Below the pieces are notes generated by a model that saw nothing but the letters and a program-made list of their open reading frames with translations, did no database searches and was not told the DNA's origin. Position numbers and translations under genes: made by a program. From a virus, in IMG/VR virus record IMGVR_UViG_3300047170_000049, positions 1 to 64,000 of that record: a stretch of 64,000 bases of DNA. The stretch is one strand, 5' to 3'. Below, piece after piece: positions 13,068 through 48,554 of the stretch (position 1 is its first letter; each line of letters begins with the position of its first letter).

Positions 13068-13094
13068 TTAAGTTATTTCTAGACTAGCCGATAG
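13068..13094 (+). promoter_or_regulatory. sigma28 (FliA)-type promoter
   Basis: TTAAGTTA-N11-GCCGATAG versus consensus TAAAGTTT-N11-GCCGATAA; 6 nt before ATG 13101. Confidence 0.7.
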
Positions 13095-13100
13095 ACTGGT

Positions 13101-13346
13101 ATGGTAAAGACATTCCAAGTCGGTGACTTAGTGTCATTCAAAGGTAGTACGTCTTGGGGGATAATAGTCTCAATAGACGCCTACACTAGAAATACCCACA
13201 ATGTGTGGGTTAAGCCCATATGTGGAACGCCACGTTGGATGAACCCACCTCTAGGTGGCGAATGGTCTGTGACTATGGGTGATTTAATGGATATTCCAGA
13301 GGATTCGGAATATAAGGAGTTAGGTCAGTTACTTTATGGTGATTAA
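13101..13346 (+). CDS. LLYG-tail family protein
   Basis: TFQVGDLV; ends EYKELGQLLYGD. Confidence 0.85.
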   Translation: MVKTFQVGDLVSFKGSTSWGIIVSIDAYTRNTHNVWVKPICGTPRWMNPPLGGEWSVTMGDLMDIPEDSEYKELGQLLYGD

Positions 13347-13596
13347 ACCTGGAATGCTTTTTAAAACCGTACCTGACGATAATGGGAAAGTGTATTTCTA
13401 TATTGTGGATTGGGTTGATAAAAACGATGTTGGGTATCACAACATAGGGTTAAATGTTGGGACTGCAATAGACCAAGATGAGTTTGTTGATAATTTTGAA
13501 CCTGAATGGCATGGCCATCATTGGGAAGAAGTCTCTGATGAAGAGGCTTATGTTGTTAGACTTTTATATGGAGAAGGCGATGAAAAAGATGAATAA
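13336..13596 (+). CDS. LLYG-tail family protein with short extension
   Basis: IKPGMLF; ends SDEEAYVVRLLYGEGDEKDE. Confidence 0.85.
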   Translation: MVIKPGMLFKTVPDDNGKVYFYIVDWVDKNDVGYHNIGLNVGTAIDQDEFVDNFEPEWHGHHWEEVSDEEAYVVRLLYGEGDEKDE

Positions 13597-13747
13597 AGAC
13601 TTTCAAGTGGTAGACTTGAACACCCCAGAAAATCTAGAGCAAATCGAGCGATTGGTGAAACAGATTAAAGATGCCACCAATAGGCATTACGCTGTTAACA
13701 CACCATGCGGGTTCTTAATTGTGCCAGAAGGTGAGACCGTACAATGA
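13568..13747 (+). CDS. hypothetical protein (start 13568-13589)
   Basis: In-frame ATG inside the upstream LLYG codons; ATGA overlap with the next gene. Confidence 0.6.
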   Translation: MEKAMKKMNKDFQVVDLNTPENLEQIERLVKQIKDATNRHYAVNTPCGFLIVPEGETVQ

Positions 13748-13974
13748 AGATTTATGCCAAGGTGAGATTCCCATTCAATGCTCAGTCCAAAGAGAATCTC
13801 AATGACATTGTGGACTGGAAAATCGAAGAAGGCTCAATAGTGGAGATACTGCCTGATGGCGATAGCATCTTCCGAGCCATTGAATTTAAGAAACGGACTT
13901 TCTACATACCGCTGGTCAATATGTATGTGATGAGCGATGCAGAGTCCAAACTAGCAGAGGTATTGTTTGGCTAG
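13744..13974 (+). CDS. LLYG-tail family protein
   Basis: IEEGSIVEI; ends SDAESKLAEVLFG. Confidence 0.85.
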   Translation: MKIYAKVRFPFNAQSKENLNDIVDWKIEEGSIVEILPDGDSIFRAIEFKKRTFYIPLVNMYVMSDAESKLAEVLFG

Positions 13975-14209
13975 AGGTGGTTGGCACGAGTTTAGGATGG
14001 GCATGTTCATTCAGGGTAATCACGGTGAGCAAGCTCATTACCGCATTCAACAATGGAAGAATGCGTACCACATCACTTTACTCAAAGTATCAGGTGAGCA
14101 CCTGGGCTATGAAGTTATGATTGACATTGATACGCTTCATGAGAACTTTGAGCCAAGGCCAGACTATGTGTCCGACTACTACCGACTTTACGAAAACCTT
14201 AAGCTGTAG
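13967..14209 (+). CDS. divergent LLYG-tail family protein
   Basis: TTG start from the upstream LFG; EFRMGMFI; ends DYYRLYENLKL overlapping a convergent gene. Confidence 0.7.
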   Translation: MARGGWHEFRMGMFIQGNHGEQAHYRIQQWKNAYHITLLKVSGEHLGYEVMIDIDTLHENFEPRPDYVSDYYRLYENLKL

Positions 14210-16682
14210 GCGAAAGATTAAAGCTGATTGGCAGCGTACCTTGTTGGTTTGCTAGTTGAGCCACAATGGTAAGCGCAACGTAAGTATCGCCTTGTTGTAG
14301 TGAGAAGTTTTCAATAGCTCTGAAGCGTGCGTCCGTTGAGAACGTATTGTTTAAGTTCTTCAATATGTCAGATGCGTTCACATCAGCTTCTGAACCACCC
14401 AATTCAACACCTAAGCCGAATCCAGGATGGCCGAGTAAAGAGTTAATATTTGTAGTCACCTTAAGTTTAGCCGCTTGGGTTAGGTTCGTAACTCCATAAG
14501 CTAAGTTAGCAAAACCATTAGGGTCAATAGCCAAGTCACCGTTTGAATCTAATAAGAAGTCAATCTTACTGAACGCAAGTTGCTCTGGGTCTGCAGTGAT
14601 GTAGCTAATGGGCTTAGTGGTGAGCCCGTCAATTTGTGCAGGGTCAGCACTTGGGATGTAAAGGGTTGATGTGGAGTTCACCGTATAGGGCAAGTAAGCA
14701 AGCATTTCAGCGTTGTCTGCAGCCCGATAGATTGAAAGGTCAACCCCAACACCTTGGACTGTAACAATAAAGTTTGTCGAATTAATTTCCGATATAGCTG
14801 CAATCTGGAATTGGGTACGAGGTTGGGTATCAGATGATAAGAATATCTTCTGGCCCACATAAAGATTAGTCGTATCGGCAATATTGAATTCAGCATTGCT
14901 ACCGTTATTAAGTAGTGGCACGGTGAATCCCGTTTGGTCAACATAAGGAGCTTGGAGTCCATTGACTGCAGCAATCTCAATCCAACGTGTTGCATCGCCT
15001 AAGTAGGTTTGAGCCACCCATTCAAGTGTTCCATTGTATGGGAATGGAACTTGAAACTTAGAATTAGGCACAGTAAATGGGATATTGTTTGCTTGTGAAG
15101 CTGTATCCCAGAACTGTAGTGGGTCAACAGCTTGTGATTCGTCGAGTGAATCTGTAACGGTCAATGAAGCTAATGCCACGATGGTTTGTTGTAACGCATA
15201 GAGAATATCGAACGTGTCATCATCAATCACGCCATTAGGTGCAGCATTAGCCAAAGCATCGGCGGTTGATTGAAGGTTATTAGCTAACTTATTGATGAAG
15301 TTCTGATTGGTATTATTTACGGCGTTTTGTTGCACAGCTTGAATCGCTTGGGTTTGCGCTGCCGTTAGTGGGATAGATGACAAAGGCAGTGCTGCAGAGA
15401 ATGTAGGGTCGTTAATAAGATTCTGCAATCCTACTTGGTTATTAACGAATGAACCACCCGTGTTGCTTGGGTCATTCAAAGTGTCAGATACGGCGGCATC
15501 AAATTGAGTCTTAAGCTCAGGCTGATTAGCGAATGCGGCAGAGATTTGTGAAGAGTTGGTAAGCAAGTTGTTCGATAAGCTCTTAGAGATGTTACCAGGC
15601 AAGTCTGCAACGGCAGTGGCTAATCCAGTTAAGTCTTTCGCAAATAGAATGACTTGGTTCAATGGACCAATAATGTTGTTTTGAATGTCTGAGTTAACAG
15701 CACTGACCGTATTAGTTGCGAGTTGAACCGTTTGACGGGCATTATTTAATGCGTTCAAAGCGTTAACTAAAATATTAGTATTGCCGATACCAGGAGTGAG
15801 AATAGTTTGAGCTTTGATATTGCTCAAGCCTACGGAGTTGGTTGTACCCCATGCAGTAGCATTGAATGAGAAAACGTATTCCATTGGGGCATTAGCTGAC
15901 CTATCCACGCTGAAGGACTGTGGAGTTATGAGATAGGTGATACCATCTTTAGGCATCTCTAGAGCTAAACGAAGAGCTTGGTTATTGGGTGACTTCTTAG
16001 CTTCAGCATATGCTTCTAAGAACATTCGCAATAAGTGGAATTGAAAGTATCCTGATTGGTAAATAGCTGATTGACTTAGTTGCCCAGCGGTTGATGTAGC
16101 AGTGCTAAAGCTTGAAATGACATTAGAAGCTGAAGCGATTACTTGTTGTGCAGCTTGGATGGTTCCACCGAACAGCGTACCCAATACACCAGGCTGTGCA
16201 GCAAGGTTGTAAGCAGGACGTTGTGGCAAGATACCAGTAGTAGCTTGGATGCTAATTTGTCTAATTGGTGTCCCGTTATGCTCTTCCAAGACTCCGTTAG
16301 AAGTGATGGTGAGCTTAGATGCGAATGGCGTGGTAATGCGTAACGATTGAGGGTTGATGGGCATGGTGTAAGACGCGACGATTGAGTAGTTATCCCCACC
16401 TTGGTTAGACTTCAATACTAATAGATTGTAAGGGAATGATTGGTCCCAGTTATTTACAAATGAGTTGAACGCACCAAACGAAAGACCACGTTGCATTAAG
16501 CTATTGGAGTAGTTACTTAGGTCGATGATTGAGTTCATTGCAGACTGGAACGTAGAGTAGTCGGAACCTTGGTTTGAATAGTTCAATGGGGCCGTTCCAC
16601 CTGCAGGAACGCCTACAGCATTTTGCACGAATGCCTTAGCTGATGATTGAATTTGGTCTGTTGAAGGAGGAAAATCTACCAT
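14199..16682 (-). CDS. fused baseplate protein (tube-like N-terminus, LysM/tail-X-like domain, gp25-like C-terminus)
   Basis: PINPQSL...ISIQATTG; TLEWVAQTYLGDATRWIEIAAVNGL; NGDL...GVTNLTQA...HPGFGLG...DARF. Confidence 0.7.
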   Translation of the reverse strand: MVDFPPSTDQIQSSAKAFVQNAVGVPAGGTAPLNYSNQGSDYSTFQSAMNSIIDLSNYSNSLMQRGLSFGAFNSFVNNWDQSFPYNLLVLKSNQGGDNYSIVASYTMPINPQSLRITTPFASKLTITSNGVLEEHNGTPIRQISIQATTGILPQRPAYNLAAQPGVLGTLFGGTIQAAQQVIASASNVISSFSTATSTAGQLSQSAIYQSGYFQFHLLRMFLEAYAEAKKSPNNQALRLALEMPKDGITYLITPQSFSVDRSANAPMEYVFSFNATAWGTTNSVGLSNIKAQTILTPGIGNTNILVNALNALNNARQTVQLATNTVSAVNSDIQNNIIGPLNQVILFAKDLTGLATAVADLPGNISKSLSNNLLTNSSQISAAFANQPELKTQFDAAVSDTLNDPSNTGGSFVNNQVGLQNLINDPTFSAALPLSSIPLTAAQTQAIQAVQQNAVNNTNQNFINKLANNLQSTADALANAAPNGVIDDDTFDILYALQQTIVALASLTVTDSLDESQAVDPLQFWDTASQANNIPFTVPNSKFQVPFPYNGTLEWVAQTYLGDATRWIEIAAVNGLQAPYVDQTGFTVPLLNNGSNAEFNIADTTNLYVGQKIFLSSDTQPRTQFQIAAISEINSTNFIVTVQGVGVDLSIYRAADNAEMLAYLPYTVNSTSTLYIPSADPAQIDGLTTKPISYITADPEQLAFSKIDFLLDSNGDLAIDPNGFANLAYGVTNLTQAAKLKVTTNINSLLGHPGFGLGVELGGSEADVNASDILKNLNNTFSTDARFRAIENFSLQQGDTYVALTIVAQLANQQGTLPISFNLSPTA

Positions 16683-16691
16683 AAATTACCT

Positions 16692-18218
16692 TTATTGTAA
16701 TGTCTTAAAGATACGAGTCGTATCTGAAACCAAGTAACTCAAGGGCAAAGCCGTATTGAGTTGAACCTGATTGGTTGAAATAATATTTGCAATGGTCCTA
16801 GTGATTTCTGGTTGTGTTTCTGACACCGCTGTAATAGTATCGCCGATAGACAAACCAGTAACATCTGTAATGAATATGATTGGCTTACCTTCTTGGTCGG
16901 TCACAGCCTTAGTGAGGAAGTATGCGTTGTAATCCGTTGCTAAATTTGTGTTGTTTGTGCTCAACGTGTTCAGAGCGCCTAATGAAGAACTTGAATCAAA
17001 GTACCGACGAGCACTACCTGAAGCTCGATTTAGTCGAACGTCCAACCATTTATATCGTTCGTAATATGAACTGCCCACAATGCCGCCATATGTACCATCG
17101 CCATTATCTACAACATTGCCTACCGCCGTTAGAATTTGAGAAGCTCGACTAGTAATATAAGCTTGACGTGTAGTGATGAGCGTTTGCACTGGAGTTAAGC
17201 TTGCGTTCACGAATCTTCCAGTGGCACCAGTGTTAGGTTTTGCACCCCATGTGGTGAGCGTAGCAATAGCGGCATTATTTGCCGTAGTTGCACTAGCATT
17301 TTGAGTCATCTGTAACGTTCTATTGTCATTCTGAATCATTAATTGAGTGAGTTGAGCATTGATATTAGCTAGCCAAATCATGCGATTAGCGTCAATAAGC
17401 CCAGTGAGATTGGTTAATAGTTCCTGTAGAGTTGATGAGGTTAATGTGTTTCTTTCCGTATTAGTGAAACCAACGTGGGTGTTGGTAACGCTATCACCTG
17501 GTGAGAACGTACCCATAGAGCCTATGATTGGGGTAACTGTTAAAATTGGGTCTACGAATGGAGGTGTGATTTCTTGTCCAGGAGTAATGCCATTGACTAA
17601 GTAAATGCCTGAATTAGAGCCGCCATATACATAAATCAAATCGCCTACAGAAAATCCAGTATCGTCATTTACGGATAGCTGACCACTGGTGAAGCCTTCC
17701 GTGGCTATGGTTGTACTGCCAGTGGTAGCACCCGTGATACCATTCAACAACCACCCTAAAAGGTTTGTCAACCCAAAAGGTGAAGTTGATTGCGTAAGGA
17801 TATTACCTTCATAGACAGAAGCCGTGCCTACAGAGTTGTTGAGTCCGTTTACTGCGCTAACGATTTGCGGTATAAATAAAGTATAAGCAGGGGTAGTACC
17901 TGGAAAAAATAAAGCACCTGCACTTCCAGGGCTTTGTGCTGATGTAGATAAGTCACCAGCGGTGAATGGGCTAATTGTTCCATCAGAGTATTCAGCGGGT
18001 TCGATGCCATTGAGTAGCGTGCTTTCTGTTTCGTATGCGTTTGTTTGCGTGCGAAAAAAGTTATAAAACACGGCATTGGCAGCGTCAACATTTAAGAGCG
18101 CCGTTTGTTGTGCTGATAGAGATGCAGTTGTTTGCGCATACGCAGCATTCTCTTTGGCAATATTGATTTGCCTTCGAGTAATATCTAATCTTTGCTGCGT
18201 GGTAAAACTAATTCCCAT
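16692..18218 (-). CDS. virion structural protein (start moved to 18218)
   Basis: Thr/Asn/Gly-rich protein in the tail operon; TAATG overlap with the upstream gene. Confidence 0.65.
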   Translation of the reverse strand: MGISFTTQQRLDITRRQINIAKENAAYAQTTASLSAQQTALLNVDAANAVFYNFFRTQTNAYETESTLLNGIEPAEYSDGTISPFTAGDLSTSAQSPGSAGALFFPGTTPAYTLFIPQIVSAVNGLNNSVGTASVYEGNILTQSTSPFGLTNLLGWLLNGITGATTGSTTIATEGFTSGQLSVNDDTGFSVGDLIYVYGGSNSGIYLVNGITPGQEITPPFVDPILTVTPIIGSMGTFSPGDSVTNTHVGFTNTERNTLTSSTLQELLTNLTGLIDANRMIWLANINAQLTQLMIQNDNRTLQMTQNASATTANNAAIATLTTWGAKPNTGATGRFVNASLTPVQTLITTRQAYITSRASQILTAVGNVVDNGDGTYGGIVGSSYYERYKWLDVRLNRASGSARRYFDSSSSLGALNTLSTNNTNLATDYNAYFLTKAVTDQEGKPIIFITDVTGLSIGDTITAVSETQPEITRTIANIISTNQVQLNTALPLSYLVSDTTRIFKTLQ

Positions 18219-18481
18219 TATGCACCTGGTGGATTTCTTGGCAACGTGGCCAAGTATTGTTCGTTTAAAAAGTGATTTAGATATGCCACTTTGTTTGTGG
18301 TCCAAACCGTAAAGCTATCCAAGTATTTCTTGTCACGTTCATTCCATGACCACTCAGCATAAACCACGTCTTCATTGAGCTGATTCAAAGCATCAATCAA
18401 ACGCATGGGTGTATCGTCATAACAAGGGTCAGGGTTTATCTTGTGATAAAGTACCTTTTTAGGTATGTTACCGTAGTTCAT
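18218..18481 (-). CDS. hypothetical protein inside the tail operon
   Basis: 87 aa, FTVWTTNKV...LPRNP; fills the gap. Confidence 0.65.
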   Translation of the reverse strand: MNYGNIPKKVLYHKINPDPCYDDTPMRLIDALNQLNEDVVYAEWSWNERDKKYLDSFTVWTTNKVAYLNHFLNEQYLATLPRNPPGA

Positions 18482-18508
18482 AGGGGTTAACTGTCCTTTT
18501 TAGGCATG

Positions 18509-19609
18509 TTATGTGCCTACAAATACTGTGCTTGAGCCCGTGATAATGTTTGATATGACTGGGGCACCAAGATTACCAATACCGATACATTGCGAAATAC
18601 CCACGGCTGCAACTGGCACTGAGCCGTCACCAATCATATTGATTGTGCCTTTGAGTTGAGCAATGTTACCGCCTTGGAGCATTAAGTTTGCGCCAGCTTG
18701 GATATTAACGTTTGACCCTGCATTAATATTCCAATTAGAGCCTGATTTTTGATTCACATTAGATGAAACTTCTTGAGTGAAGTTATTGCCTGAGTTCACA
18801 GTCATGTCAGAGCCTGACTTGATAGTCATGGCGTCGCCTGATTCTATGTATTGCTTACCCGTAGCCTTGTCATTGATGTCGCCACCAGAAGTAATAGAGA
18901 TAGCTTTGTTGGCTTTATCTACCAGGATTGTTTCAGATTCATTGGTAATGGTGACATTTTTATTCACGCGGTCGAAGGTCATGGATTGGTTTTCATTATC
19001 GCTAACGATAACCTTGCCGTCTTTATCAATCTTAATCATCGTACCAGAAGCTGCAGCGTTGACTGGGTTACCAGATATGTCTGTGCCTGACTGGAATGAA
19101 ATAGTAAGAGCGCCGTCATTATCAATGAACTGCCTAATTCCATTGAATTGGAAGTCATGGAAGTGGCCGTCATCGGATGTACGAGCGATAGCGTTTTGGA
19201 GGTTCTTCATTCCACCTACGATAAACGCTGAACCTGCTTCCGTAACACCATTCAAGCATAGAACTAATACGAGCGAAGCATTGGTGGTGTTAGGCGTATT
19301 GGAATCAATAGGGTCGGGTCGTAGAGTGTACTCAGTGTAATCAGCTTGCCCACCAAACATATCCATTGTTCTACAACGGAAGTAGGTATGAAGGTTGACT
19401 GAACCATTCTCGTTAGATTCAAACACGTTAACGTCATACTCGATGGACTTACCTGAATAAGAATTGGGGTCATCTGGATAATAAATTTGTACAATCTGGC
19501 CCACAAGTAGCTTGAAGTTTGTCTTCGATAAGCTACGAGCCGATTGCATTGGTTTTGTTGAAAGGCCAGATGGTATTACTGAACCATCGCCTAATTCTTG
19601 CATTGACAT
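18509..19609 (-). CDS. baseplate central spike (gp5 / gpV-like)
   Basis: OB-fold-like N-terminus, 8-residue beta-helix repeats (NINAGSNVNIQAGANLML), C-terminal IITGSSTVFVG. Confidence 0.8.
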   Translation of the reverse strand: MSMQELGDGSVIPSGLSTKPMQSARSLSKTNFKLLVGQIVQIYYPDDPNSYSGKSIEYDVNVFESNENGSVNLHTYFRCRTMDMFGGQADYTEYTLRPDPIDSNTPNTTNASLVLVLCLNGVTEAGSAFIVGGMKNLQNAIARTSDDGHFHDFQFNGIRQFIDNDGALTISFQSGTDISGNPVNAAASGTMIKIDKDGKVIVSDNENQSMTFDRVNKNVTITNESETILVDKANKAISITSGGDINDKATGKQYIESGDAMTIKSGSDMTVNSGNNFTQEVSSNVNQKSGSNWNINAGSNVNIQAGANLMLQGGNIAQLKGTINMIGDGSVPVAAVGISQCIGIGNLGAPVISNIITGSSTVFVGT

Positions 19610-24798: not shown

Positions 24799-24962
24799 CT
24801 TTAACCTTAGCTTTGTTCCTTTATGTGATTATTACGGGCCTAGCGACCTTTATAGGAATGCAGGAGTATGGTGGGCGAGCGACCGTAGTTGAGTTTGCCG
24901 TTGCCATGTTCACTGGATGGGCCGCCATACCAATAAGGCTCTTAGTTAAGCTTGTCCGATGA
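24795..24962 (+). CDS. 55-aa membrane protein
   Basis: ATGA overlap; two hydrophobic segments. Confidence 0.55.
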   Translation: MTLTLALFLYVIITGLATFIGMQEYGGRATVVEFAVAMFTGWAAIPIRLLVKLVR

Positions 24963-25028
24963 GAGATGAGTTGTGTTTGATTTTTTTATTAATCATGACC
25001 CTATTTTGGGTTTTAGGCGGTAAGTGAT

Positions 25029-25190
25029 ATGTCCTATAACGACGAGCTTTGTGAATACTGCGAGAAATCCCAAGGCAGTCGCCTGAGATATGTCTCGTGC
25101 TGTAAGATGCACCTATGCAATGAGTGTTTGCATGACCATGGATGCGCGAAAGGAGAACAACCCGCTACTGATGCCGATGATGACAACTAA
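25029..25190 (+). CDS. 53-aa Cys/His-rich zinc-finger-like protein
   Basis: CEYC...SCCKMHLCNECLHDHGC. Confidence 0.6.
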   Translation: MSYNDELCEYCEKSQGSRLRYVSCCKMHLCNECLHDHGCAKGEQPATDADDDN

Positions 25191-25386
25191 ACTGTCAAAC
25201 TTTTTGACTGTCTAGTAAGTTACGAACGTTTTTGAGCACTTAGGAAAAGTGAACACAAGTTGACCGATAGGTAGGTCTTTCAACCTATCGAAACCACACG
25301 AAGTGGATGCTGGCACGACGCCTGCACTAAGGACTTGTATCGAACGAACGGTAGAATCAAACCAGTAGAACGTATGAGGGGGACCT

Positions 25387-25593
25387 ATGTTAACGAATAC
25401 CAATCAAGTGCCTGCTAGAACTTATGCCGCTGTTGAGGCAATCCTAGAAGTGGATGTTGAGTTTATCGCAAATGATAAACGTTATTTCTTTGCCGCTGGC
25501 TCCACAATCACTGTAGACCTTAATGAGAACATTGGATTTGCTCAAGGCGTCCACTTCTCACTTGAGCGTGACGAGTTTTCCATTCCTAATTAA
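25387..25593 (+). CDS. hypothetical protein
   Basis: GAGGGGG SD; 68 aa beta-rich. Confidence 0.7.
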   Translation: MLTNTNQVPARTYAAVEAILEVDVEFIANDKRYFFAAGSTITVDLNENIGFAQGVHFSLERDEFSIPN

Positions 25594-25620
25594 TCTATAA
25601 GCTAAAGTTGTTGTGCTGGT

Positions 25621-25639
25621 CCCCTGCGATAAGCAGGGG
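25621..25639 (+). terminator. GC-rich hairpin after 25387..25593
   Basis: CCCCTGC-GATAA-GCAGGGG; no clear U-tract. Confidence 0.4.
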
Positions 25640-25703
25640 CATAGCCACATATGGCAACATACAATCTAAAAAATCGTCGAACTTTTGTGCATATATTTTC
25701 AAA

Positions 25704-25730
25704 TAATTTCAAGCATTTGCTTACCGATAT
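25704..25730 (+). promoter_or_regulatory. weaker sigma28-type promoter
   Basis: TAAT-N15-ACCGATAT directly before the candidate structured RNA. Confidence 0.45.
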
Positions 25731-25739
25731 GTAAATCAG

Positions 25740-25882
25740 GTATAGTTAAGTGAGCCCGTAGACTCAGCATTAACTCTTATTTTATTCGGTTTTAAAATAA
25801 ACTAATTTGTCCTCAAAGCTAATACCAAAAGTGTCTAAGAAGTTCCTAAGAGTTGGGGCCACTTAGGTATGAGTGTCTATAC
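25740..25882 (+). ncRNA. candidate structured RNA or structured leader
   Basis: Nested complementary blocks GTATAG/CTATAC, TAAGTG/CACTTA, GCCC/GGGC, AACTCTTA/TAAGAGTT, plus crossing ACTCA/TGAGT; no ORF. Confidence 0.4.
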
Positions 25883-26007
25883 TCCTTACATTCTAAAAAT
25901 CCCTATCTGCACCAAAACTAGACTTGACCCGTGGCACGCCTGTTGCTAATACTAACAATAACAACTTAATTAACTGCACCCTATGGTGCTTAACCAGGAG
26001 AATAAAG

Positions 26008-27102: not shown

Positions 27103-27159
27103 ACATAGGCTGTTAAAACTTTATGAAATAAGTGCAAAAAGAGTGATATATAGTCTTAT

Positions 27160-28044: not shown

Positions 28045-28045
28045 A

Positions 28046-28723: not shown

Positions 28724-28751
28724 TAAAGTTTCTCAAATGAGACTCCGAATA
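28724..28751 (+). promoter_or_regulatory. sigma28-type promoter
   Basis: TAAAGTTT-N12-TCCGAATA. Confidence 0.55.
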
Positions 28752-28861: not shown

Positions 28862-29146
28862 ATGGAAAGTCAATACTTTATCACGCCTCATGCTGCCCAA
28901 CAGTTTCTCAGTCGATTTAATGACGCAATTAAGCCATTTAAAAACGCAAAGCCATTAGACTTCTTTAAAGAAGCCGTTAAAATCACTGTAAAGGCCGAGA
29001 ACCGTAATTGGATTGATTACCACTACAATGTGCGTATTAACGCCGTATTCGTCTCAGACCGCATTACAAAGACTATAATCACTACCTTCATACCTAAAGA
29101 CGAAATTAAGTATGCTGAAGCAATTTTTTTGAAGAAAGCAGCGTGA
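28862..29146 (+). CDS. hypothetical protein, possibly RelE/DUF4258-like fold
   Basis: AAGGAG SD; ITPHAAQQF...TIITTF pattern. Confidence 0.6.
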   Translation: MESQYFITPHAAQQFLSRFNDAIKPFKNAKPLDFFKEAVKITVKAENRNWIDYHYNVRINAVFVSDRITKTIITTFIPKDEIKYAEAIFLKKAA

Positions 29147-29418
29147 GGTGTGATATGGTAGCAATAGTGGGAGTTCTTACGTTCTTAAGTTTCTTATTTC
29201 TTAAAAAGTCCCGTCGGGAAGTTGATATTCAAGCCCGATATACGCACTTAGCGCTTTTTAGGAGATACGGACATAAGCATTATAAAGAGCCTATGTTCTT
29301 AAATCCACTAACTAAGAACGTGAACGACGTTGACACTTATTATTTTCATACCAAGGACTTGGGGCCTGAAAATCATATCTGGGACTCAAACCTTAAAAGA
29401 GGCTGGTTAAAAAAGTGA
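29143..29418 (+). CDS. hypothetical protein with N-terminal TM
   Basis: Hydrophobic N-terminus; operon spacing. Confidence 0.55.
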   Translation: MRCDMVAIVGVLTFLSFLFLKKSRREVDIQARYTHLALFRRYGHKHYKEPMFLNPLTKNVNDVDTYYFHTKDLGPENHIWDSNLKRGWLKK

Positions 29419-29642
29419 AGGCTATAAAATACTTCAACGTCTACAATGGCAATTTAAGTACGGCTCTTTGGGGTGAACTTTGCTTCGTGGAGAAAGATGC
29501 CACGCCAGTTTCTTCAGTCAATGACCGCACGGTAACTGGACCATTTGATAGTATTAAAGAAGCCCAGGAATCATTTTCCAAATATGAAAAGACTAAGAAA
29601 TACTTTCTTTTTACCGAACAGGTAGTGTTTAATTTAAAATGA
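29415..29642 (+). CDS. hypothetical protein
   Basis: GTGA overlap. Confidence 0.6.
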   Translation: MKAIKYFNVYNGNLSTALWGELCFVEKDATPVSSVNDRTVTGPFDSIKEAQESFSKYEKTKKYFLFTEQVVFNLK

Positions 29643-29661
29643 TGCAACAAAGGAGCACTAC

Positions 29662-30141
29662 ATGAACATTATTTTCTTAGATTTTGACGGAGTTTTGAAT
29701 TCTGCCCAGTCCAGTGTGTTTTGGAGTAAACAAGGCCACCCATATGGTCTAGTTAATAACAAGGTCCGTGGCTATAACCGCTTTTGCCCTATAGCGATGT
29801 CCAACTTGAATTACATCTTGGAGGCGTCACCTGAGACCAACGTTGTGATTTCATCTTCATGGCGCTTAGGTAATACGTTTGAAGAGTTAAAAATCATACT
29901 CACAGAGAATGGCTTTGCTCACCCTGACAGGCTTATAGGGGTCACCCCACACTTGCCAGGTAAGATTCGTGGCAATGAGATTGACCAGTGGTTCACAGAT
30001 ACAGACCTAGACGTTAGTAAGTACGTCATCATTGATGATGATTCAGACATGGGCGATATGACCAAATACTTAGTGCAGACCCATTACGGGGTTGGACTAT
30101 CCTGGGTTGAAATTGAGAAAGTGTTGGAATTACTAAAATGA
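29662..30141 (+). CDS. HAD-superfamily phosphatase (Swiss-army-knife RNA-repair type)
   Basis: FLDFDGVLN, VISSSWR, RGNEI, YVIIDD. Confidence 0.9.
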   Translation: MNIIFLDFDGVLNSAQSSVFWSKQGHPYGLVNNKVRGYNRFCPIAMSNLNYILEASPETNVVISSSWRLGNTFEELKIILTENGFAHPDRLIGVTPHLPGKIRGNEIDQWFTDTDLDVSKYVIIDDDSDMGDMTKYLVQTHYGVGLSWVEIEKVLELLK

Positions 30142-30356
30142 TTGAAGCATACACTGGGTACGAATTGTCACAATATGAAGACGGTAAACCCCGTGTGTGC
30201 AACTTCCAAGCTGGCATGTTTTGGTGCCAGCATAGGACATTATTTGAAGTATTCAGACCTGAGCATGGTGGCATGGGTTGGATATGCGAGAACTGTAAAC
30301 ATTTTCACCCCAGTAAAGAAGCTTATTTAAAGAATCTTTTATTTAATAAGGAGTAG
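30138..30356 (+). CDS. Zn-binding hypothetical protein, possible divergent LLYG-tail member
   Basis: C, CQH and CENC residues; ends KEAYLKNLLFNKE. Confidence 0.65.
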   Translation: MIEAYTGYELSQYEDGKPRVCNFQAGMFWCQHRTLFEVFRPEHGGMGWICENCKHFHPSKEAYLKNLLFNKE

Positions 30357-30360
30357 CCAC

Positions 30361-30591
30361 ATGGCCGCCAAAAAGAAAGCATTATCTAACGAAGAAAAGC
30401 TTGAGCTAAAAATTGAAGAACTTGAGTCTACCATTTCAGATTTACGAGATGAGCTAGCTGACATGGAAGAGCGTCTTTACGCCGAAGAAGACAAGGTTCA
30501 GGATTTGGAGATTGAGCTTGAAGAGACCCAATCAAAGTTGCAAGATAAAGAAGACGACGAAGAAGAGGAAGACTATGACGAAGGGTTCTGA
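30361..30591 (+). CDS. very acidic coiled-coil protein
   Basis: AAGGAG SD; heptad Leu pattern, strongly D/E-rich. Confidence 0.75.
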   Translation: MAAKKKALSNEEKLELKIEELESTISDLRDELADMEERLYAEEDKVQDLEIELEETQSKLQDKEDDEEEEDYDEGF

Positions 30592-42395: not shown

Positions 42396-42634
42396 ACATT
42401 CTTGATGAACTTAAAGACAAGATTACTGAAGTGCAGACCATCACGGTGGGGACGGATGAAATTCTTGTAATAAAACTCAGACATGACGAGGTATCTCAAG
42501 AGGAAATAAATAAAGTTCATAAAGTTTTTGAAGCCAAACTTCCTAAAACAAAGGTGTTGATTTGCGATGATTTATTTCAGTTCATTAAAATCTCTAATGA
42601 CGAGTTAAAACTCATTGACCTATTGAAGGGGTGA
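42392..42634 (+). CDS. divergent LLYG-tail family protein
   Basis: Ends SNDELKLIDLLKG. Confidence 0.7.
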   Translation: MNILDELKDKITEVQTITVGTDEILVIKLRHDEVSQEEINKVHKVFEAKLPKTKVLICDDLFQFIKISNDELKLIDLLKG

Positions 42635-42924
42635 ACATGGTTAAGTTCTTCAAAAATCTTTTCAAACGTAAGCCTAAATTCCAAATCTCTGACCGCTTTG
42701 CAGCCTTAATTTTTGAAGTAGCTACAGGCAACAAGGCAATGATTGCACCTGCCATTTTGGTTCACCGTGCCTATCTTAAAGAATATGGCGATAAGTACAA
42801 AAAGACCAATGAATACTTCTACATGAGCGAAGTTGATAATGTCATTCCCGACTACATCTTCAAAGCTGATGTGCGCCGTAAACTTCTTCAAAAATATGGT
42901 TCAAACGCACAAAGAAATTTTTAA
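42631..42924 (+). CDS. hypothetical protein
   Basis: GTGA overlap. Confidence 0.6.
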   Translation: MNMVKFFKNLFKRKPKFQISDRFAALIFEVATGNKAMIAPAILVHRAYLKEYGDKYKKTNEYFYMSEVDNVIPDYIFKADVRRKLLQKYGSNAQRNF

Positions 42925-42981
42925 AAAATAGCCACTTTTGTGATATTAACTGAATGAGAAACAATCACAAAGGAGCTATGA

Positions 42982-43647
42982 ATGATTCCCAGTAAATTCC
43001 CTAAAGCATTAGTTGTAGAGATTGAAGGGCTTGATGGCTCTGGCAAGACCACGGGTTTAAAATACCTAGTGGAGCAACTGACCGCTAAAGGCTTTAAAGT
43101 CTTATCTACCCGCGAAGTTGGCAGTACCCATATTCCAGTGTGCGCTGACCTAAGAAAAATTGTCTTAAACCCTGAACTGACCTTGGATGGGACGACCATG
43201 GAATTCATCTTCGCAGCAATGCGTATTGAAAACCAAAAGTTCTATAAGTCAGTTGAAGAAGAGTATGATTTCATCATCTCTGACCGTGGATGGCTCAGTC
43301 ACCTTGCTTATACAGACCAAAACGTGAGTAATGAATTCACCCAAGCCTTCTACAAAGGCATTGTAGCTCCGCTAACCAAATTACCTGACAAGATTCTTTA
43401 TTTTGACATTGCACCTGCTACAGCTTTTGAGCGTATGCAAAAACGCGGTGAACTGCCTGATTCCATTGAGAAAAAAGGCGCTGTGTTTATGGAACGCGTG
43501 GCTAAGAGCTTTAAATCTCACATGATGAGCTACGGAGTATTTAGCCGTATTAGCCATGTTGATGCCAATAAGACTTTAGCAGAAGTTCAAACAGAACTGG
43601 ACGGGCACATTGAAGCTCTAGTTAAAGCCCGTGACGAAAAAGAGTAA
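42982..43647 (+). CDS. tmk: thymidylate kinase
   Basis: IEGLDGSGKTT, TREVG, ISDRG..S..AY, PD. Confidence 0.92.
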   Translation: MIPSKFPKALVVEIEGLDGSGKTTGLKYLVEQLTAKGFKVLSTREVGSTHIPVCADLRKIVLNPELTLDGTTMEFIFAAMRIENQKFYKSVEEEYDFIISDRGWLSHLAYTDQNVSNEFTQAFYKGIVAPLTKLPDKILYFDIAPATAFERMQKRGELPDSIEKKGAVFMERVAKSFKSHMMSYGVFSRISHVDANKTLAEVQTELDGHIEALVKARDEKE

Positions 43648-43882
43648 GGTAATATTTTACATTGGTTTATTTCTAGTGGGCCTATCCATTGAAAGAGCGT
43701 GGGATGCCCACTTAGAGTATTGTTTAAAACTGAATTGGGTTACGGCACGAAATGCTTATCTCACTAGCTGCATTCAAGCGGTTAAAGACTTGCCTCTTAA
43801 AGGCCAGAACAAGAATTTAATCATTCGTGGCTATTGTAATAAAATGACCGATTCATACTTGGAATGGATTTATGGGAAATAA
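43631..43882 (+). CDS. hypothetical membrane-anchored protein
   Basis: N-terminal TM, three Cys. Confidence 0.6.
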   Translation: MTKKSKVIFYIGLFLVGLSIERAWDAHLEYCLKLNWVTARNAYLTSCIQAVKDLPLKGQNKNLIIRGYCNKMTDSYLEWIYGK

Positions 43883-44645
43883 GAACTGGGCAGATTACTT
43901 TGATGTCAATAGTTTATTAACCCAAAAAGGTGGTGATGGTGGAGATACCCCCTCACATGAAGGGTTAGCTTGGTTGGCCGCTCACTTTGGTGGTAACTTT
44001 CCATCTCCATTAGGTTATGGTAATTTCATTTACGAAGTATCGCCAAATGAAAAGTTAATTCGTAACCCAATTACATACAACAACCCTAACGATACTTCTA
44101 GAGACCAATACCGTGCCGTTGTTGTGGCAGACTTCTTTCAAAACCCACACGGCTTGTTTTCGCAGGATTTTTATAAAAATCTACCCAAAAACTTCCTAGG
44201 ATGGGCTCATTACCCCAATGGTGATGTGTTTAATCCACAAGATTACGTCTTGTTTCACCCAAATGCAAATTATGCTTGGAAGCTCCTCAGTGATGTAATG
44301 GCGCTCTTTGGCGTACTCACTTTGGTGTGCTGGACAACTCGTAAGCCTGGGTTTATCACTAAAGCCCTTGGTAAGCTATGGTGGCCCTTCATTGCAATGA
44401 ATCCACCTAATAATCAAGGTGTTCAAGGGTCTTTGCGTGGCCCCGATTACACATCAGATGATTTAGGTACGATTGAAACGCTGTTGTATTCAAAATACAA
44501 CGGTACATTCTTAAATAAACTTAACAGATGGATTTATAGAACCTTTCGACCTAATGGTGTTCAATGGGCTTTAGATTCTTACTTTGCAGAAGACATTGCA
44601 CCACCAATTAACGAAATCTCTCAAGGCATGGTGAAAGAATTATGA
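43872..44645 (+). CDS. hypothetical protein
   Basis: 257 aa, coupled on both sides; DGGDT, LIRNP and SRDQ segments. Confidence 0.75.
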   Translation: MGNKNWADYFDVNSLLTQKGGDGGDTPSHEGLAWLAAHFGGNFPSPLGYGNFIYEVSPNEKLIRNPITYNNPNDTSRDQYRAVVVADFFQNPHGLFSQDFYKNLPKNFLGWAHYPNGDVFNPQDYVLFHPNANYAWKLLSDVMALFGVLTLVCWTTRKPGFITKALGKLWWPFIAMNPPNNQGVQGSLRGPDYTSDDLGTIETLLYSKYNGTFLNKLNRWIYRTFRPNGVQWALDSYFAEDIAPPINEISQGMVKEL

Positions 44646-45202
44646 TTAAATTTATTGGACTGGATTGCGAAACAGGTGGTTTTGCTGGGACGAGCTTACT
44701 TAGCTTCTTCTTTGGTATTTACGACGAAAACTATCAGCTATTGGACGGCCTGGAACTATTCGTCAAGCCTAAAGATGGTATCTATCACGTTACCGCTGAA
44801 GCTTTGGGTATTAACGGCATTAACCTCATTAATCACGATAAGGTCGCCGTAACCTACGAAGCTGGTGGTAAGCTTTTATGGGACTTTCTTGTCAAACACT
44901 CAGACAATGGAAAGAATAAGTTACTACCCTTAGGGCACAATGTTTATTTTGATATTCAGCGTCTTACCCCTGACTTGATGACCAAGAAGACATGGAATAT
45001 GTTCGTAAGTTACCGATTGGTAGACTTAGGCGGGATAGTAACCGCATTGAAGTTAGCAGGTAAGTTGCCTCATTCCATATCTGGAAGCTTAGGTTCAATT
45101 TGTAAGCACTTTGGGGTTCAATTAACCAATGCCCACGATGCCAAGGCCGATGTTACGGCTACCGTAGAATGTGTCAAACATTGTGTGGAGTTGATGAAGT
45201 GA
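44642..45202 (+). CDS. DEDDh 3'-5' exonuclease (DnaQ-like)
   Basis: LDCETGG, GHNVYFD, AHDAKADV. Confidence 0.9.
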   Translation: MIKFIGLDCETGGFAGTSLLSFFFGIYDENYQLLDGLELFVKPKDGIYHVTAEALGINGINLINHDKVAVTYEAGGKLLWDFLVKHSDNGKNKLLPLGHNVYFDIQRLTPDLMTKKTWNMFVSYRLVDLGGIVTALKLAGKLPHSISGSLGSICKHFGVQLTNAHDAKADVTATVECVKHCVELMK

Positions 45203-45360
45203 GTGAAATTGCTGAATGGGTGCTAGCCCAGATGCACGAACCATGCGAATTTTGCGGGTTACATCATATTACCCCAGAAGATGAGCGCCAATGTGAAGAA
45301 CTCATGGAAGAAATGTTCAATAAGAAATTGGCTAAAGTAATTGAAGAACTAAACCGATAG
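45169..45360 (+). CDS. small Zn-ribbon-like protein
   Basis: CEFCGLHH...C; start probably GTG near 45199. Confidence 0.55.
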   Translation: MCQTLCGVDEVSEIAEWVLAQMHEPCEFCGLHHITPEDERQCEELMEEMFNKKLAKVIEELNR

Positions 45361-45367
45361 AGGTCGT

Positions 45368-45748
45368 ATGAGCTATCCCACGGAATGCAAACATTGCAAA
45401 AAGTATCAATGGCCCGATAAATATTGCTGCAAAGCAAACTTTCGTGACCGCACGGATAACTCAGTTTTGATTGACGTTAAACCCATTCGTTACAACCACG
45501 AATCTGTCTACTTCGTGCCCGTGTTCCAAAAAAACTTTAAAGACGATGGTACGCCCGAGTACAGCCCTACATTTACTTATTCTTTTGAACTTTGCACCAG
45601 TGATGAACAAATGGCCTGGAGCTTTGAACCTGATTATGTGCTGGTACTTAAGGGCACGTTTGATGCGACCACTCAACCATTTATAATCAAAGGGGACGAA
45701 GATGATAAGTCTGTTGTTCAAACTCCTGGCGGGACATGCGTTAGCTGA
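45368..45748 (+). CDS. hypothetical protein with N-terminal Cys cluster
   Basis: GAGG SD; CKHC...YCC. Confidence 0.65.
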   Translation: MSYPTECKHCKKYQWPDKYCCKANFRDRTDNSVLIDVKPIRYNHESVYFVPVFQKNFKDDGTPEYSPTFTYSFELCTSDEQMAWSFEPDYVLVLKGTFDATTQPFIIKGDEDDKSVVQTPGGTCVS

Positions 45749-46055
45749 TTTCGCCCTACAAAGCGACTTTATCGCTAATAATAAGAATCGCCATTCTATA
45801 CCCAAGGGTTACAACCCAGACCTTCATGGTCCAATGCAAACCATCTGGCCATACGTTCTGACCTCCCATGCCTTAATTCACGGCCTAATGGTGTTCCTGG
45901 CCACGGGAAGCACTACCCTGGGATTAATCGAGACTGGTGCTCATTGGGTGATTGATTTTGGGAAATGTGAAAAATGGTATGGAATTCACACGGACCAGTG
46001 GTTACACATTGGTTTTAAAGTCGCTTATGTGTTATTCTTAGGACTACATGGATAA
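45702..46055 (+). CDS. DUF3307-type membrane protein
   Basis: HALADFALQ, HALIH, HWVID..K, DQWLH. Confidence 0.85.
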   Translation: MISLLFKLLAGHALADFALQSDFIANNKNRHSIPKGYNPDLHGPMQTIWPYVLTSHALIHGLMVFLATGSTTLGLIETGAHWVIDFGKCEKWYGIHTDQWLHIGFKVAYVLFLGLHG

Positions 46056-46347
46056 TTACGACCAGCGTATTGAAGAATTTAAGGCTAGAATCGCCGTAGA
46101 GCCTGAGTGGTGCGAGGAACTGTTCCGTTACGCTACCATAAGGCTATTAGCGGCAAAATATGCGTATTATGTATTGAATGACCCCTATCAATCTGACATA
46201 GCCTACGACCTAGATGAAAAAGGCTGGTATGTTATGGGTAGAGCGTTGGGGCACTTGAAAGAAGACGATACCTCACCTTGTGTCGATTGGAATGAAAATC
46301 ACCCATTAGCCGCTGAAGCTATTGCTTTGGCAAAGGAATTAGTATGA
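46048..46347 (+). CDS. stand-alone NAD-dependent DNA ligase subdomain Ia-like protein
   Basis: YAYYVLNDPYQSDIAYD matches the LigA YY-x-x-D-x-P-x-x-x-D-x-x-YD motif. Confidence 0.7.
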   Translation: MDNYDQRIEEFKARIAVEPEWCEELFRYATIRLLAAKYAYYVLNDPYQSDIAYDLDEKGWYVMGRALGHLKEDDTSPCVDWNENHPLAAEAIALAKELV

Positions 46348-46565
46348 CCGATTTATTTTGGATTGTGTGGGCTGGAATTTCACTTTTTAACGTAATGTTG
46401 GTGGGGCACGAATATGCTTCACAGATTAGACGTGATGGTGAGGTTGTTGGGTTTAAGTGTGTTGCAGGGGTTTTATTTGCCCCGTTCTTTTTGGCTTTCA
46501 CGATAGGCTACCGCATCAAAAAATTCCCTAAATTCAAAGTTTCTATTCAAAAGGACAACACATGA
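46344..46565 (+). CDS. small membrane protein
   Basis: Two hydrophobic segments. Confidence 0.6.
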   Translation: MTDLFWIVWAGISLFNVMLVGHEYASQIRRDGEVVGFKCVAGVLFAPFFLAFTIGYRIKKFPKFKVSIQKDNT

Positions 46566-47134
46566 AAACTTGGTTCACTAGCGATACCCACTTTGGCCAC
46601 TTGAACGTCATTAATTATTGCAAACGCCCATTCACTGGCATTGAGCATATGAATGCAGAGATGGTGCGTCTTTGGAATGAGACTGTGGCTCCTGAAGATA
46701 CCGTTTACTTTCTGGGTGATTTTTCACTGGGCAAACAAGCGGTGGTAGAGATTTTACCTAAGCTCAATGGCATAAAACACTTGATTGCGGGTAACCACGA
46801 CCGTTGTCACCCAGCACACGCCAAGAAAGAAGCTAAGATTGCAGCTATGACCCAGTGGTACTTGGAAATGGGCTTTGCGACCGTTCAATTGGAACTTAAG
46901 ATTAATATTGCAGGCCACTCAGTGAAACTTCACCACATGCCCTATAGCGGTGACCATACGGAGATGGAACGCTATGGTAAGTACCGTCCTAAGAATGAAG
47001 GCGACTGGCTTCTTTGCGGTCACGTCCACGACCTTTTCAAGATTAAGGGTAAGCAAATTAACGTAGGCGTTGATGTTTGGGACTTTAAACCCGTAAGCTC
47101 AGAACAAATTGCAGAGATTATTAATGGAGCATAA
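46562..47134 (+). CDS. calcineurin-like metallophosphoesterase
   Basis: SDTHFGH, LGDF, GNHD, HHMP, GHVH, NVGVD. Confidence 0.9.
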   Translation: MKTWFTSDTHFGHLNVINYCKRPFTGIEHMNAEMVRLWNETVAPEDTVYFLGDFSLGKQAVVEILPKLNGIKHLIAGNHDRCHPAHAKKEAKIAAMTQWYLEMGFATVQLELKINIAGHSVKLHHMPYSGDHTEMERYGKYRPKNEGDWLLCGHVHDLFKIKGKQINVGVDVWDFKPVSSEQIAEIINGA

Positions 47135-47477
47135 AAAAGGCGATGTCTTTTGGATGCGAAGGAAATCTGCCATTGGTGGCGCGCCTAAGAATTTCATGCG
47201 CATTATCCAGCTAGACGGCAATCCAAGACTGACAAATTTAGCTCAATACGACAGTGAGTATCTTTACAACATAGTGCATTTACGGCATTACTCAAATAAT
47301 CCACATAGAGTCAAAAAGGTAGCTTCAGAACATGATTTGGATTCTTTTTGGATTAAAATGAGCGATGACGAAGCATATTTGGCAAAATTATTATTTCAAG
47401 TTTTAGACTTTAAAGAGTATGAAGAGACTTCAAGAATTAGGGCTGGTCAATTTTTAAAAAAGATAGGGGTAATATGA
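47124..47477 (+). CDS. LLYG-tail family protein with C-terminal extension
   Basis: HKKGDVF; internal SDDEAYLAKLLFQ followed by about 25 aa. Confidence 0.75.
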   Translation: MEHKKGDVFWMRRKSAIGGAPKNFMRIIQLDGNPRLTNLAQYDSEYLYNIVHLRHYSNNPHRVKKVASEHDLDSFWIKMSDDEAYLAKLLFQVLDFKEYEETSRIRAGQFLKKIGVI

Positions 47478-47710
47478 ACATTTATTTCAAATACTGGCTT
47501 CCTAAAGACGTTGATGTAGAAGTAATGGAATGGTACGGTATTCGTTTTGGTAGGCATTCAAAAAGTCACAATTATAATGCCTGGGACCTGAATATTGTCA
47601 TTCCAGGTAAAGGTGTATACGAATTAACGATAACAGATAACCATGCGAAATTTCTCAAGGAATGGGGGAAAGACTTTAAAATTGTGGTTGATTGGCAATT
47701 ATTCCCTTAA
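47474..47710 (+). CDS. hypothetical protein
   Basis: ATGA overlap. Confidence 0.65.
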   Translation: MNIYFKYWLPKDVDVEVMEWYGIRFGRHSKSHNYNAWDLNIVIPGKGVYELTITDNHAKFLKEWGKDFKIVVDWQLFP

Positions 47711-47733
47711 GTTTTAAACATAAAAACCGATAG
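47707..47733 (+). promoter_or_regulatory. sigma28-type promoter
   Basis: TTAAGTTT-N11-ACCGATAG. Confidence 0.7.
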
Positions 47734-47749
47734 AATATATAGAAAGAAG

Positions 47750-47953
47750 GTGATTATGTTAGAGTTTATAGTTAATTATCTTACAGTTGATGCGGTGGCC
47801 TCTTTGTTTGTAGGCGTTATTATCTACGCAAAAAGAAACCAAATCAAATACGCCTTACGCGCTTGGTTGGCCGTTCCTGCAGGTTGTTCACACCCTGAAG
47901 AGATTGAAGCTGATGATGAATTTATTAATGACTATGACAGTGAGGAAGAGTAA
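47750..47953 (+). CDS. small membrane protein with acidic tail
   Basis: TM followed by a D/E-rich C-terminus. Confidence 0.6.
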   Translation: MIMLEFIVNYLTVDAVASLFVGVIIYAKRNQIKYALRAWLAVPAGCSHPEEIEADDEFINDYDSEEE

Positions 47954-48097
47954 TGTGCAATTGTTCTGGACCCTGCCGATGCAGTGAAAAGAATGAAAAA
48001 TTAAAGGCAGAACTTGAAGCCTTTAAGCTAAATAACACCATTGACGAGCTTATTAAAGAATTGCAAAGCCTCAAGCTAGAGGTCAAGGAGTTGAAAC

Positions 48098-48391
48098 GTG
48101 AGCCATCAAACTAAAGGTCCATGGTTTGTAAATGCTGAAGACGGTGCGGATTTCACCGCCATATCCACTAATCCAAATGGCGATGGCAGTATAGAATTTG
48201 AAAAGGAAGTATTAGGCGCTTCCGAATGGTTGAGAGTCAAGCCTGAAGATTTGCGATTGATGGCAGCGGGGCCTGAACTTTTGGAAGCCGCGAAATTAGC
48301 ATTAGACATTGCCGTTGCTGGACAATTCCGTGTTCTTGAAAAAACTCTAAGGGCAGCTATTAAAAAGGCAGAAGGTGATGAAGGTAGGTAA
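48098..48391 (+). CDS. phage hypothetical protein (HTxGPW...AAPELLEA type)
   Basis: HQTKGPW and LMAAGPELLEA; AAGGAG SD. Confidence 0.75.
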   Translation: MSHQTKGPWFVNAEDGADFTAISTNPNGDGSIEFEKEVLGASEWLRVKPEDLRLMAAGPELLEAAKLALDIAVAGQFRVLEKTLRAAIKKAEGDEGR

Positions 48392-48527
48392 AATCATCAC
48401 CTTTACAATTTATGATGGTAGCCGAGTCCATGCCGTCATAACGAAAATACATGACAATGGCAACGTAGAGATTGCCAATGGCACTATATTGATTCTGACA
48501 GGTTCTGAAGAATTTACTTAAAAATAC

Positions 48528-48554
48528 TAAAGTTTTAAAAACAGATGCCGAATA
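48528..48554 (+). promoter_or_regulatory. sigma28-type promoter
   Basis: TAAAGTTT-N11-GCCGAATA, followed by AAGGAG and ATG 48579. Confidence 0.7.

Follow-up and report, generated by a model that had tools for sequence, protein, structure and literature searches.

The DNA analysed here, a stretch of 64,000 nucleotides (nt) that we call the window, corresponds to bases 1-64000 of a 159,288-bp IMG/VR virus record (IMGVR_UViG_3300047170_000049, hereafter G000) rated complete by CheckV. It carries a strongly enriched class of predicted promoters of the sigma-28 (FliA/SigD/WhiG) type, and we consider it probable, though well short of assured, that a FliA-type holoenzyme of the host reads these sites for a separate accessory-gene programme. 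The first-pass annotation, made from the sequence of the window, had proposed such promoters upstream of plus-strand clusters of accessory genes; its four main sites (13068, 47707, 48528 and 28724) read as it wrote them, and the motif does sit ahead of such clusters. The motif stands out as a real promoter class against both null models used below.

The reference for the search was the E. coli sigma-28 (FliA) consensus, TAAAGTTT-N11-GCCGATAA, fixed beforehand. This consensus describes the class 3 flagellar promoters of E. coli and Salmonella (PMC2859248, with Koo et al. 2009 and Wozniak and Hughes 2008 cited there). The complete genome was scanned with loose settings, and alignment and an iterated matrix then gave 12 strong two-box sites, which are set out here with the moderate and weak candidates.

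13068..13094, plus strand: strong sigma-28-type promoter TTAAGTTA-N11-GCCGATAG, in a divergent intergenic region.
47707..47733, plus strand: strong sigma-28-type promoter TTAAGTTT-N11-ACCGATAG (also given as CCCTTAAGTTT-N11-ACCGATAG), with a ribosome-binding site and start codon 16-23 nt downstream.
48528..48554, plus strand: strong sigma-28-type promoter TAAAGTTT-N11-GCCGAATA (also given as CTAAAGTTT-N11-GCCGAATAG), followed by the ribosome-binding site AAGGAG and an ATG at 48579.
64863, 71828, 128813, 130050, 153810, 154342, 154779 and 157649, plus strand: strong sites beyond the window.
71805, minus strand: strong site beyond the window.
28724..28751, plus strand: moderate intergenic site with a 12-nt spacer, TAAAGTTT-N12-TCCGAATA (also given as CTAAAGTTT-N12-TCCGAATAG), 110 nt upstream of the gene at 28862.
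79003 (minus strand) and 123185: moderate sites beyond the window.
25244..25270, plus strand: weak candidate GAAAAGTG-N11-ACCGATAG, with a good -10 box and a -35 box mismatched at 4 of 8 positions.
25704..25730, plus strand: weak candidate TAATTTCA-N11-ACCGATAT, with a good -10 box and a poor -35 box.

Enrichment was assessed on both strands with an 11-nt spacer. Against 300 third-order Markov simulations of the whole genome, five sites were found at up to two mismatches where 0.22 were expected (maximum 2), and 15 at up to three mismatches where 2.49 +/- 1.5 were expected (maximum 7). In the 17.3 kb of intergenic DNA, compared with 200 dinucleotide-preserving shuffles, the corresponding figures were five sites versus 0.01, and 11 versus 0.31 +/- 0.56 (maximum 3). 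The first-pass annotation had named a lack of enrichment over shuffled intergenic DNA as a result that would speak against it, and the motif proved enriched in precisely this comparison. A reversed-pattern control gave one match, versus six for the true pattern. As to placement, the plus strand carries 13 of the 15 sites with up to three mismatches, and 12 are intergenic or border on intergenic DNA; such DNA accounts for about 9% of the genome. The sites are co-oriented with the small accessory genes downstream. Behind the box there is usually a ribosome-binding site with a start codon, 16-45 nt away and mostly at 20-45 nt, the ATG behind the 13068 site coming after only 6 nt.

These observations bear on the alternative that the sites are chance matches, or copies of a dispersed repeat, devoid of promoter function. 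A match to a consensus is indeed not a function, and the weakest copies (25244, 25704, 14768 and 45333) could be due to chance; yet a 20- to 500-fold enrichment over two types of null, a consistent strand and intergenic placement, unconserved spacers and translation signals close downstream make this explanation very hard to credit for the class as a whole. With regard to the weak copies, the first-pass annotation had listed 25244 and 25704 among its promoters; both are present but good in the -10 box only, each having six mismatches in all. The -10 box at 25244 may be real, because CCGATAG is commoner in intergenic DNA (eight intergenic versus three genic occurrences on the plus strand), while 25704 taken alone is indistinguishable from chance. 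Two further doubtful sites have a 12-nt spacer: 14768 is antisense within a minus-strand gene, and 45333 overlaps the stop codon of the upstream open reading frame (ORF) and is followed by GAGG and an ATG. A stretch of about 1.2 kb (24799-26007) with almost no convincing ORF holds two isolated CCGATA boxes and a short inverted repeat at about 25263-25295, and is possibly a non-coding RNA or regulatory region.

The consensus of the phage sites comprises a T-rich run, CC, the octamer TAAAGTTT or TTAAGTTT, 11 unconserved bases and (G)CCGA(T/A)AG. Among the 12 strong sites, A3, A4 and G5 of the -35 box and the CCGA core of the -10 box are invariant, T1 is present in 11 and a G precedes CCGA in seven; the spacer is 11 nt in all of them and 12 nt in weaker sites only (28724, 14768, 45333). 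At 28724 both boxes and the flanking C and G fit this consensus, from which the spacing alone departs, by one nt. Information content in the alignment is concentrated in C-TAAAGTT and CCGA, with none in the 11-nt spacer, which fits selection on two boxes rather than a copied repeat. In the E. coli aer promoter, mutation of A3, A4 or G5 of the -35 box, or of CCGA in the -10 box, abolishes FliA-dependent activity, and the critical bases of the sigma-28 -35 octamer include T1, A3 and G5 (PMC2859248). The match to a consensus set in advance, with the right spacing and with invariant bases that coincide with the mutation-critical ones, thus argues for host FliA as the reader.

Conservation extends just beyond the -10 box. 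In the 12 phage sites together with 172 distinct sites of other phage contigs, a G occupies +1 after this box (58-59%), and the bases behind it are rich in A and T and poor in C, T standing at +7 and A at +10/+11; this pattern may be a start-site context. It could alternatively be taken to mean that the two boxes are operator or activator sites, the true -10 element being an A/T-rich, TATA-like stretch 2-5 nt downstream read by the primary sigma. Such a stretch follows the CCGA box in all 12 sites, the extended -10 class of this phage (see below) has a similar TATATAG sequence, and in other phages the overlapping sigma-70-like promoters score slightly above expectation (4.67 versus 3.79 +/- 0.23). 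However, in this genome the best overlapping sigma-70 score at the 12 sites is no better than in shuffles (4.25 versus 4.67), neither a TG extension nor a -35 hexamer lies at the right distance except at 13068, and the highest information sits in the sigma-28 boxes while the TATA-like stretch floats in position; we therefore regard the operator reading as improbable. This absence of enriched sigma-70 promoters, of the TTGACA-N16-18-TATAAT or the extended -10 kind, at the sites supports reading by host FliA, and sites built as sigma-70 promoters with a downstream -10 box are unsupported here by the same score. Sigma-70 promoters in the 44-50 kb region were likewise not enriched (14 versus 13.7 in shuffles).

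The other candidate reader is a factor of the phage itself. A six-frame search of the phage against Pfam detected no sigma region 2 or region 4 domain, and no FlgM-like anti-sigma was found. The single sigma-like gene encodes P0001, a 329-residue protein (G000 94783-95772, minus strand) that matches the sigma70-ECF model (E 2e-10) and Pfam region 3 above its cut-off, and the FliA_WhiG model at E 6e-8 over positions 2-186 of 224 only. P0001 stops just past the first helices of region 4 and has no region 4.2; 16 of 16 aligned homologues (25 found) stop at the same point, in agreement with an AlphaFold model (mean predicted local distance difference test score of 72) in which the last helices span residues 292-309 and 314-322. 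Among solved structures, primary SigA/RpoD is the best match to the P0001 profile (E 8e-11), aligned no further than the beginning of region 4; for WhiG the value is only 7e-5. The phage is thus without a full sigma-28-like gene, as this protein is truncated and nearer to primary sigmas; judged from its sequence, P0001 is not specifically FliA-like and, as its chain breaks off after the initial helices of region 4, is incapable of reading a -35 box. The absence of a phage sigma with this capacity is a further reason to propose host FliA as the reader.

In principle, the motif could still be read by an unrecognised phage sigma, or by a -35-binding partner that completes P0001. In phage T4, gp33 and the sliding clamp complete gp55, and MotA/AsiA remodel sigma-70. 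Phages often bring their own specificity factors, P0001 is itself a sigma-family protein devoid of region 4.2, and about 80% of the small proteins of the phage are without annotation. The distribution of the motif speaks against this proposal, which is the main rival but which we consider unlikely. Every Mx1-like relative has a P0001-type sigma, and few of them have the motif; no P0001-like or FliA-like protein is encoded by unrelated phages that carry arrays of it; and a private factor would not be expected to keep the exact bacterial consensus and spacing across unrelated lineages.

The relatives deserve some detail. The phage is an Mx1-like myovirus with a G+C content of 42%, whose baseplate, sheath and tail genes lie on the minus strand and which also carries genes for a PolIII-alpha polymerase, a GroEL-type chaperonin and a DnaB-like helicase. 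Myxococcus phage Mx1 (OR576727.2) is its nearest cultured relative, with 40% amino-acid identity in the tail sheath and 33% in PolIII-alpha; megablast with 10 kb of the phage gave no DNA-level match to cultured phages. The helicase and sigma gene pair is common to both phages, whereas Mx1 lacks any sigma-28-type site at the same stringency. Truncated P0001-type sigmas are encoded by 95 IMG/VR contigs. The nearest homologues of P0001 reach 60-80% identity; contigs of 71 kb and 140 kb carry homologues that are 60% (P0003) and 41% (P0013) identical to it, respectively. The motif comparison covers the 17 records with a completeness of 90% or more. Myxococcus, the host of Mx1, is to our knowledge non-flagellate.

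Of these 17 records, only three show the sigma-28 motif clearly: this phage, G011, where TTAAGTTT-N11-GCCGATAA occurs three times near the right end, and G006, likewise with three copies, of which one matches perfectly. In G011 and G006, every copy is closely followed by a ribosome-binding site and a small gene. Identity to P0001 is only about 28% for the sigmas of these two phages, yet the motif is still the bacterial consensus. The late motif of the phage, described below, behaves differently, with 21 copies here, two in the closest relative (G001, sigma 40% identical) and none in distant relatives. Since it changes along with the phage sigma, the late motif presumably belongs to that sigma, while a canonical sigma-28 motif maintained despite a drifting phage sigma points to a conserved host reader.

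Beyond these relatives, the exact 16-base consensus occurs at no fewer than 120 loci in IMG/VR, and among the 120 loci listed, 40 hold 2-11 sites at up to two mismatches, nearly always on one strand. Examples are L255 (11 sites in 5 kb) and L270 (nine sites); co-directional, near-perfect arrays are seen in these and in L226, L260, L302, L263 and other uncultured phages. The multi-site contigs are genuine phage DNA, with terminase, portal, ligase and methylase genes, and represent several lineages. At E<=0.01, a search that does detect P0001 showed no FliA/WhiG-type sigma in 14 multi-site records, of which five are complete genomes. The presence of the motif in unrelated phages devoid of a FliA-type sigma again favours the host's own factor as the reader. 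Because many unrelated uncultured phages carry such arrays without such a sigma, we would give an even chance to the broader idea that wiring early or accessory genes to the flagellar sigma of the host is a widespread, undescribed phage strategy. In three of the arrays (L260, L302 and L263), a TTGACA hexamer lies inside the 11-nt spacer, which suggests interleaved sigma-70 and sigma-28 promoters.

With regard to the host, strong Shine-Dalgarno sites, together with this promoter class, argue for a motile bacterium that uses such sites. The first-pass annotation had gone further and suggested an attack-phase predator of the Bdellovibrionota, a proposal for which the analysis yielded just a hint, two short phage-like contigs in an Oligoflexales-like metagenome-assembled genome (MAG). 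These contigs of the MAG 'Deltaproteobacteria bacterium bog_1112' carry copies of the ribonucleotide reductase that are 80-83% identical to that of the phage. One of them, L099, is phage-derived, because it also matches a second phage gene (g123), in a different order; in the other, L100, the reductase match alone was seen. No DNA match to 20 kb of the phage (44-64 kb) was found in this MAG, and the phage GroEL, used as a query for the host, found no relative. Mx1-like contigs (L343-L348, one of 165 kb) are in fact binned into GTDB MAGs of at least five unrelated groups, labelled Patescibacteria, Flavobacteriaceae, Saprospiraceae, Elusimicrobia and Deltaproteobacteria (the same bog MAG), probably as bin contamination. 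As such contigs are mis-binned into MAGs of many phyla, the hint is a weak one, and we would allow a Bdellovibrionota host roughly one chance in three.

The MAG bog_1112, whose binning is unreliable, has a FliA at the model cut-off, as do 20 of its 21 nearest genomes, one of which is labelled Oligoflexales; their FliA proteins group with those of Oligoflexus, Silvanigrella and Bdellovibrio. The pattern TWAAGTT-N13/14-CCGAWA occurs 203 times in those genomes versus 64 for the reversed control, an approximately threefold excess. Two Oligoflexales-like genomes have 54 (G049) and 27 (G048) stringent sigma-28-type sites versus seven and four for the reversed control, which may reflect a FliA regulon enlarged as in Bdellovibrio, and many instances in the Oligoflexales-like genomes carry the same T-rich run and CC ahead of the -35 box.

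Several points nevertheless weigh against host FliA as the reader. This reader is reached by elimination. As most of the small phage genes are unannotated, a specificity factor without recognisable sigma domains could be encoded among them, and a G with A/T-rich, C-poor sequence behind it is conserved just past the -10 box. Moreover, the MAG bog_1112 itself shows no enrichment of the motif (eight sites versus seven for the reversed control), and 15 Oligoflexales-like flagellin genes have no canonical site within 250 nt.

If the host FliA does read these sites, transcription would proceed as follows. Host RNA polymerase carrying the flagellar sigma would contact the -35 octamer (C)TAAAGTTT through sigma region 4, and the composite -10 box (G)CCGATAG, 11 nt downstream, through sigma regions 2 and 3. 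Transcripts would start about 7 nt past the -10 box, with which the distances to the translation signals are compatible, and yield short-leader mRNAs for accessory cassettes, which encode tagged mini-proteins, a CheY-like receiver, a GDSL lipoprotein and a pair formed by a MoxR ATPase and a VWA-metallopeptidase. The genome would accordingly contain three transcription programmes, namely an extended -10 class for replication genes, presumably read by the primary sigma of the host, a late class for virion genes, presumably read by the truncated sigma of the phage, and the flagellar-sigma class, which would make accessory expression independent of the other two and tie it to the motile state of the host.

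The first two classes came to light through k-mer enrichment in intergenic DNA and inspection. The late motif, TTAG-N3-AAAATCTTAAT with a AATAAAATCAA block upstream, lies ahead of virion genes, and its 21 copies are all on the minus strand; one of them serves a minus-strand baseplate gene at a distance of 33 nt from the 13068 site. The extended -10 box, TGATATATAG, is found ahead of the GroEL, PolIII-alpha and other replication genes outside the window, and ahead of some plus-strand blocks within it.

13018..13035, minus strand: late motif, example.
24530, 28652, 35973, 36943, 53745, 56568, 57624 and 63892, minus strand: other copies of the late motif in the window.
27135..27155, plus strand: extended -10 box, example.
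Near 3770, 37032 and 42941: other copies of the extended -10 box in the window.

At G000 71725-71875 (L008:9725-9875), a pair of sigma-28-type promoters points in opposite directions, about 15 nt separating their -35 boxes. A late-type motif comes after the minus-strand promoter of this pair, at 71.8 kb, so that the late genes of 692 and 714 residues may have a dual promoter.

The gene blocks behind the sites of the window, and the tagged array at its left end, are as follows.

13101..14209, plus strand: five small genes behind 13068, at least three of which end in a shared C-terminal tag (..LLYG / ..VLFG type); no Pfam match in this block.
28862..30591, plus strand: six small genes behind 28724.
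29662-30141, within the preceding block: HAD_SAK_2 phosphatase-like protein.
30138-30356, within the same block: one tagged protein.
47750..48521, plus strand: four small genes (67, 53, 97 and 47 residues) behind 47707, the first encoding a predicted membrane mini-protein.
48579..49368, plus strand: two genes behind 48528, of 187 residues and of 79 residues with the tag.
91..4761, plus strand: array of about 18 tagged mini-genes, without a sigma-28-type site of its own.

The 13068 promoter thus heads a cluster of mini-proteins with a shared C-terminal tag, in line with the first-pass annotation, according to which one such promoter drives a tagged-cassette cluster. The first gene of this cluster would be either leaderless from the ATG at 13101, since the -10 box ends 6 nt ahead of it, or started at the GTG at 13131 behind GGTGA; a BLASTP comparison of the 13101 start with the N-terminus of a paralogue was not significant. 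The single tRNA gene of the genome (tRNA-Met, CAT anticodon, 49442-49516, minus strand) lies just past the block served by the 48528 promoter, on the opposite strand.

The array at 91-4761 continues, across the record junction, a plus-strand block with its start at 153,878 and with four sigma-28-type promoters at its head (153810, 154342, 154779 and 157649). The two ends of the record (G000 159100-159288 joined to window positions 1-96) fall inside one ORF that ends in the C-terminal tag; as this tagged ORF spans both ends, the record is a circular permutation and the block runs unbroken into the array, so that the promoters at 153.8-157.6 kb head a block reaching it. Also outside the window, 128813 lies ahead of the MoxR-type AAA ATPase gene and 130050 ahead of the adjoining VWA/metallopeptidase gene, 157649 precedes a GDSL lipoprotein, and further tagged proteins are encoded behind other sites. 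The 154342 promoter lies ahead of a stand-alone CheY-like response-regulator receiver (G000 154392-154754, L013:2392-2754; PF00072, 65 bits), which could act as a decoy in the chemotaxis or motility signalling of the host.

According to the textbook view, phage transcription relies on the primary sigma of the host first, and then on sigmas or polymerases made by the phage. In the open-access literature, we found no description of phage genes under FliA-dependent promoters. If the proposed wiring is correct, a phage of a motile host would express these genes exclusively, or without delay, while the cell swims, and the host might have the flagellum as phage receptor or be an attack-phase predator. 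One switch would co-regulate the tagged mini-proteins, the MoxR/VWA pair of which they are the proposed targets, and the CheY-like receiver, which could interfere with motility signalling, so that these would form a single set apart from the replication and virion programmes. This would constitute a new way for viruses to sense cell physiology, through an alternative host sigma devoted to motility; it would also provide a simple sequence marker for hosts having a FliA-family sigma, and ready-made strong sigma-28 promoters for Bdellovibrio-type chassis.

Among known systems, T4 late transcription, with gp55 devoid of a -35-reading part and assisted by gp33 and the clamp, resembles this phage in having a sigma without region 4.2 and a separate late class; a T4-like system would account for the late motif, but not for sigma-28-type sites with a conserved -35 box. 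The FliA promoters of E. coli and Salmonella share with the phage sites the two octamers, the 11-nt spacer, the same critical bases and a position just upstream of a gene. In contrast to them, the phage sites are borne by a lytic-type genome, ahead of non-flagellar accessory genes, their -10 box ends in G rather than A (CCGATAG), and a T-rich run and CC often precede the -35 box. A parallel in usage is Bdellovibrio bacteriovorus, where 140 promoters of the attack phase include 92 with a FliA-type TTAAG-N16-CCGATA element (Karunker et al. 2013, PMC3627812), which establishes that hosts with a dominant FliA-type sigma exist in nature and strengthens the case for such a reader; FliA-type promoters of this species are strong in attack-phase cells (PMC12622784). 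The spacing printed for B. bacteriovorus exceeds that of most phage sites by one base. Four of the 12 phage sites have the TTAAG form of the -35 box, and both B. bacteriovorus and this phage appear to use a flagellar-sigma promoter far beyond flagellar genes.

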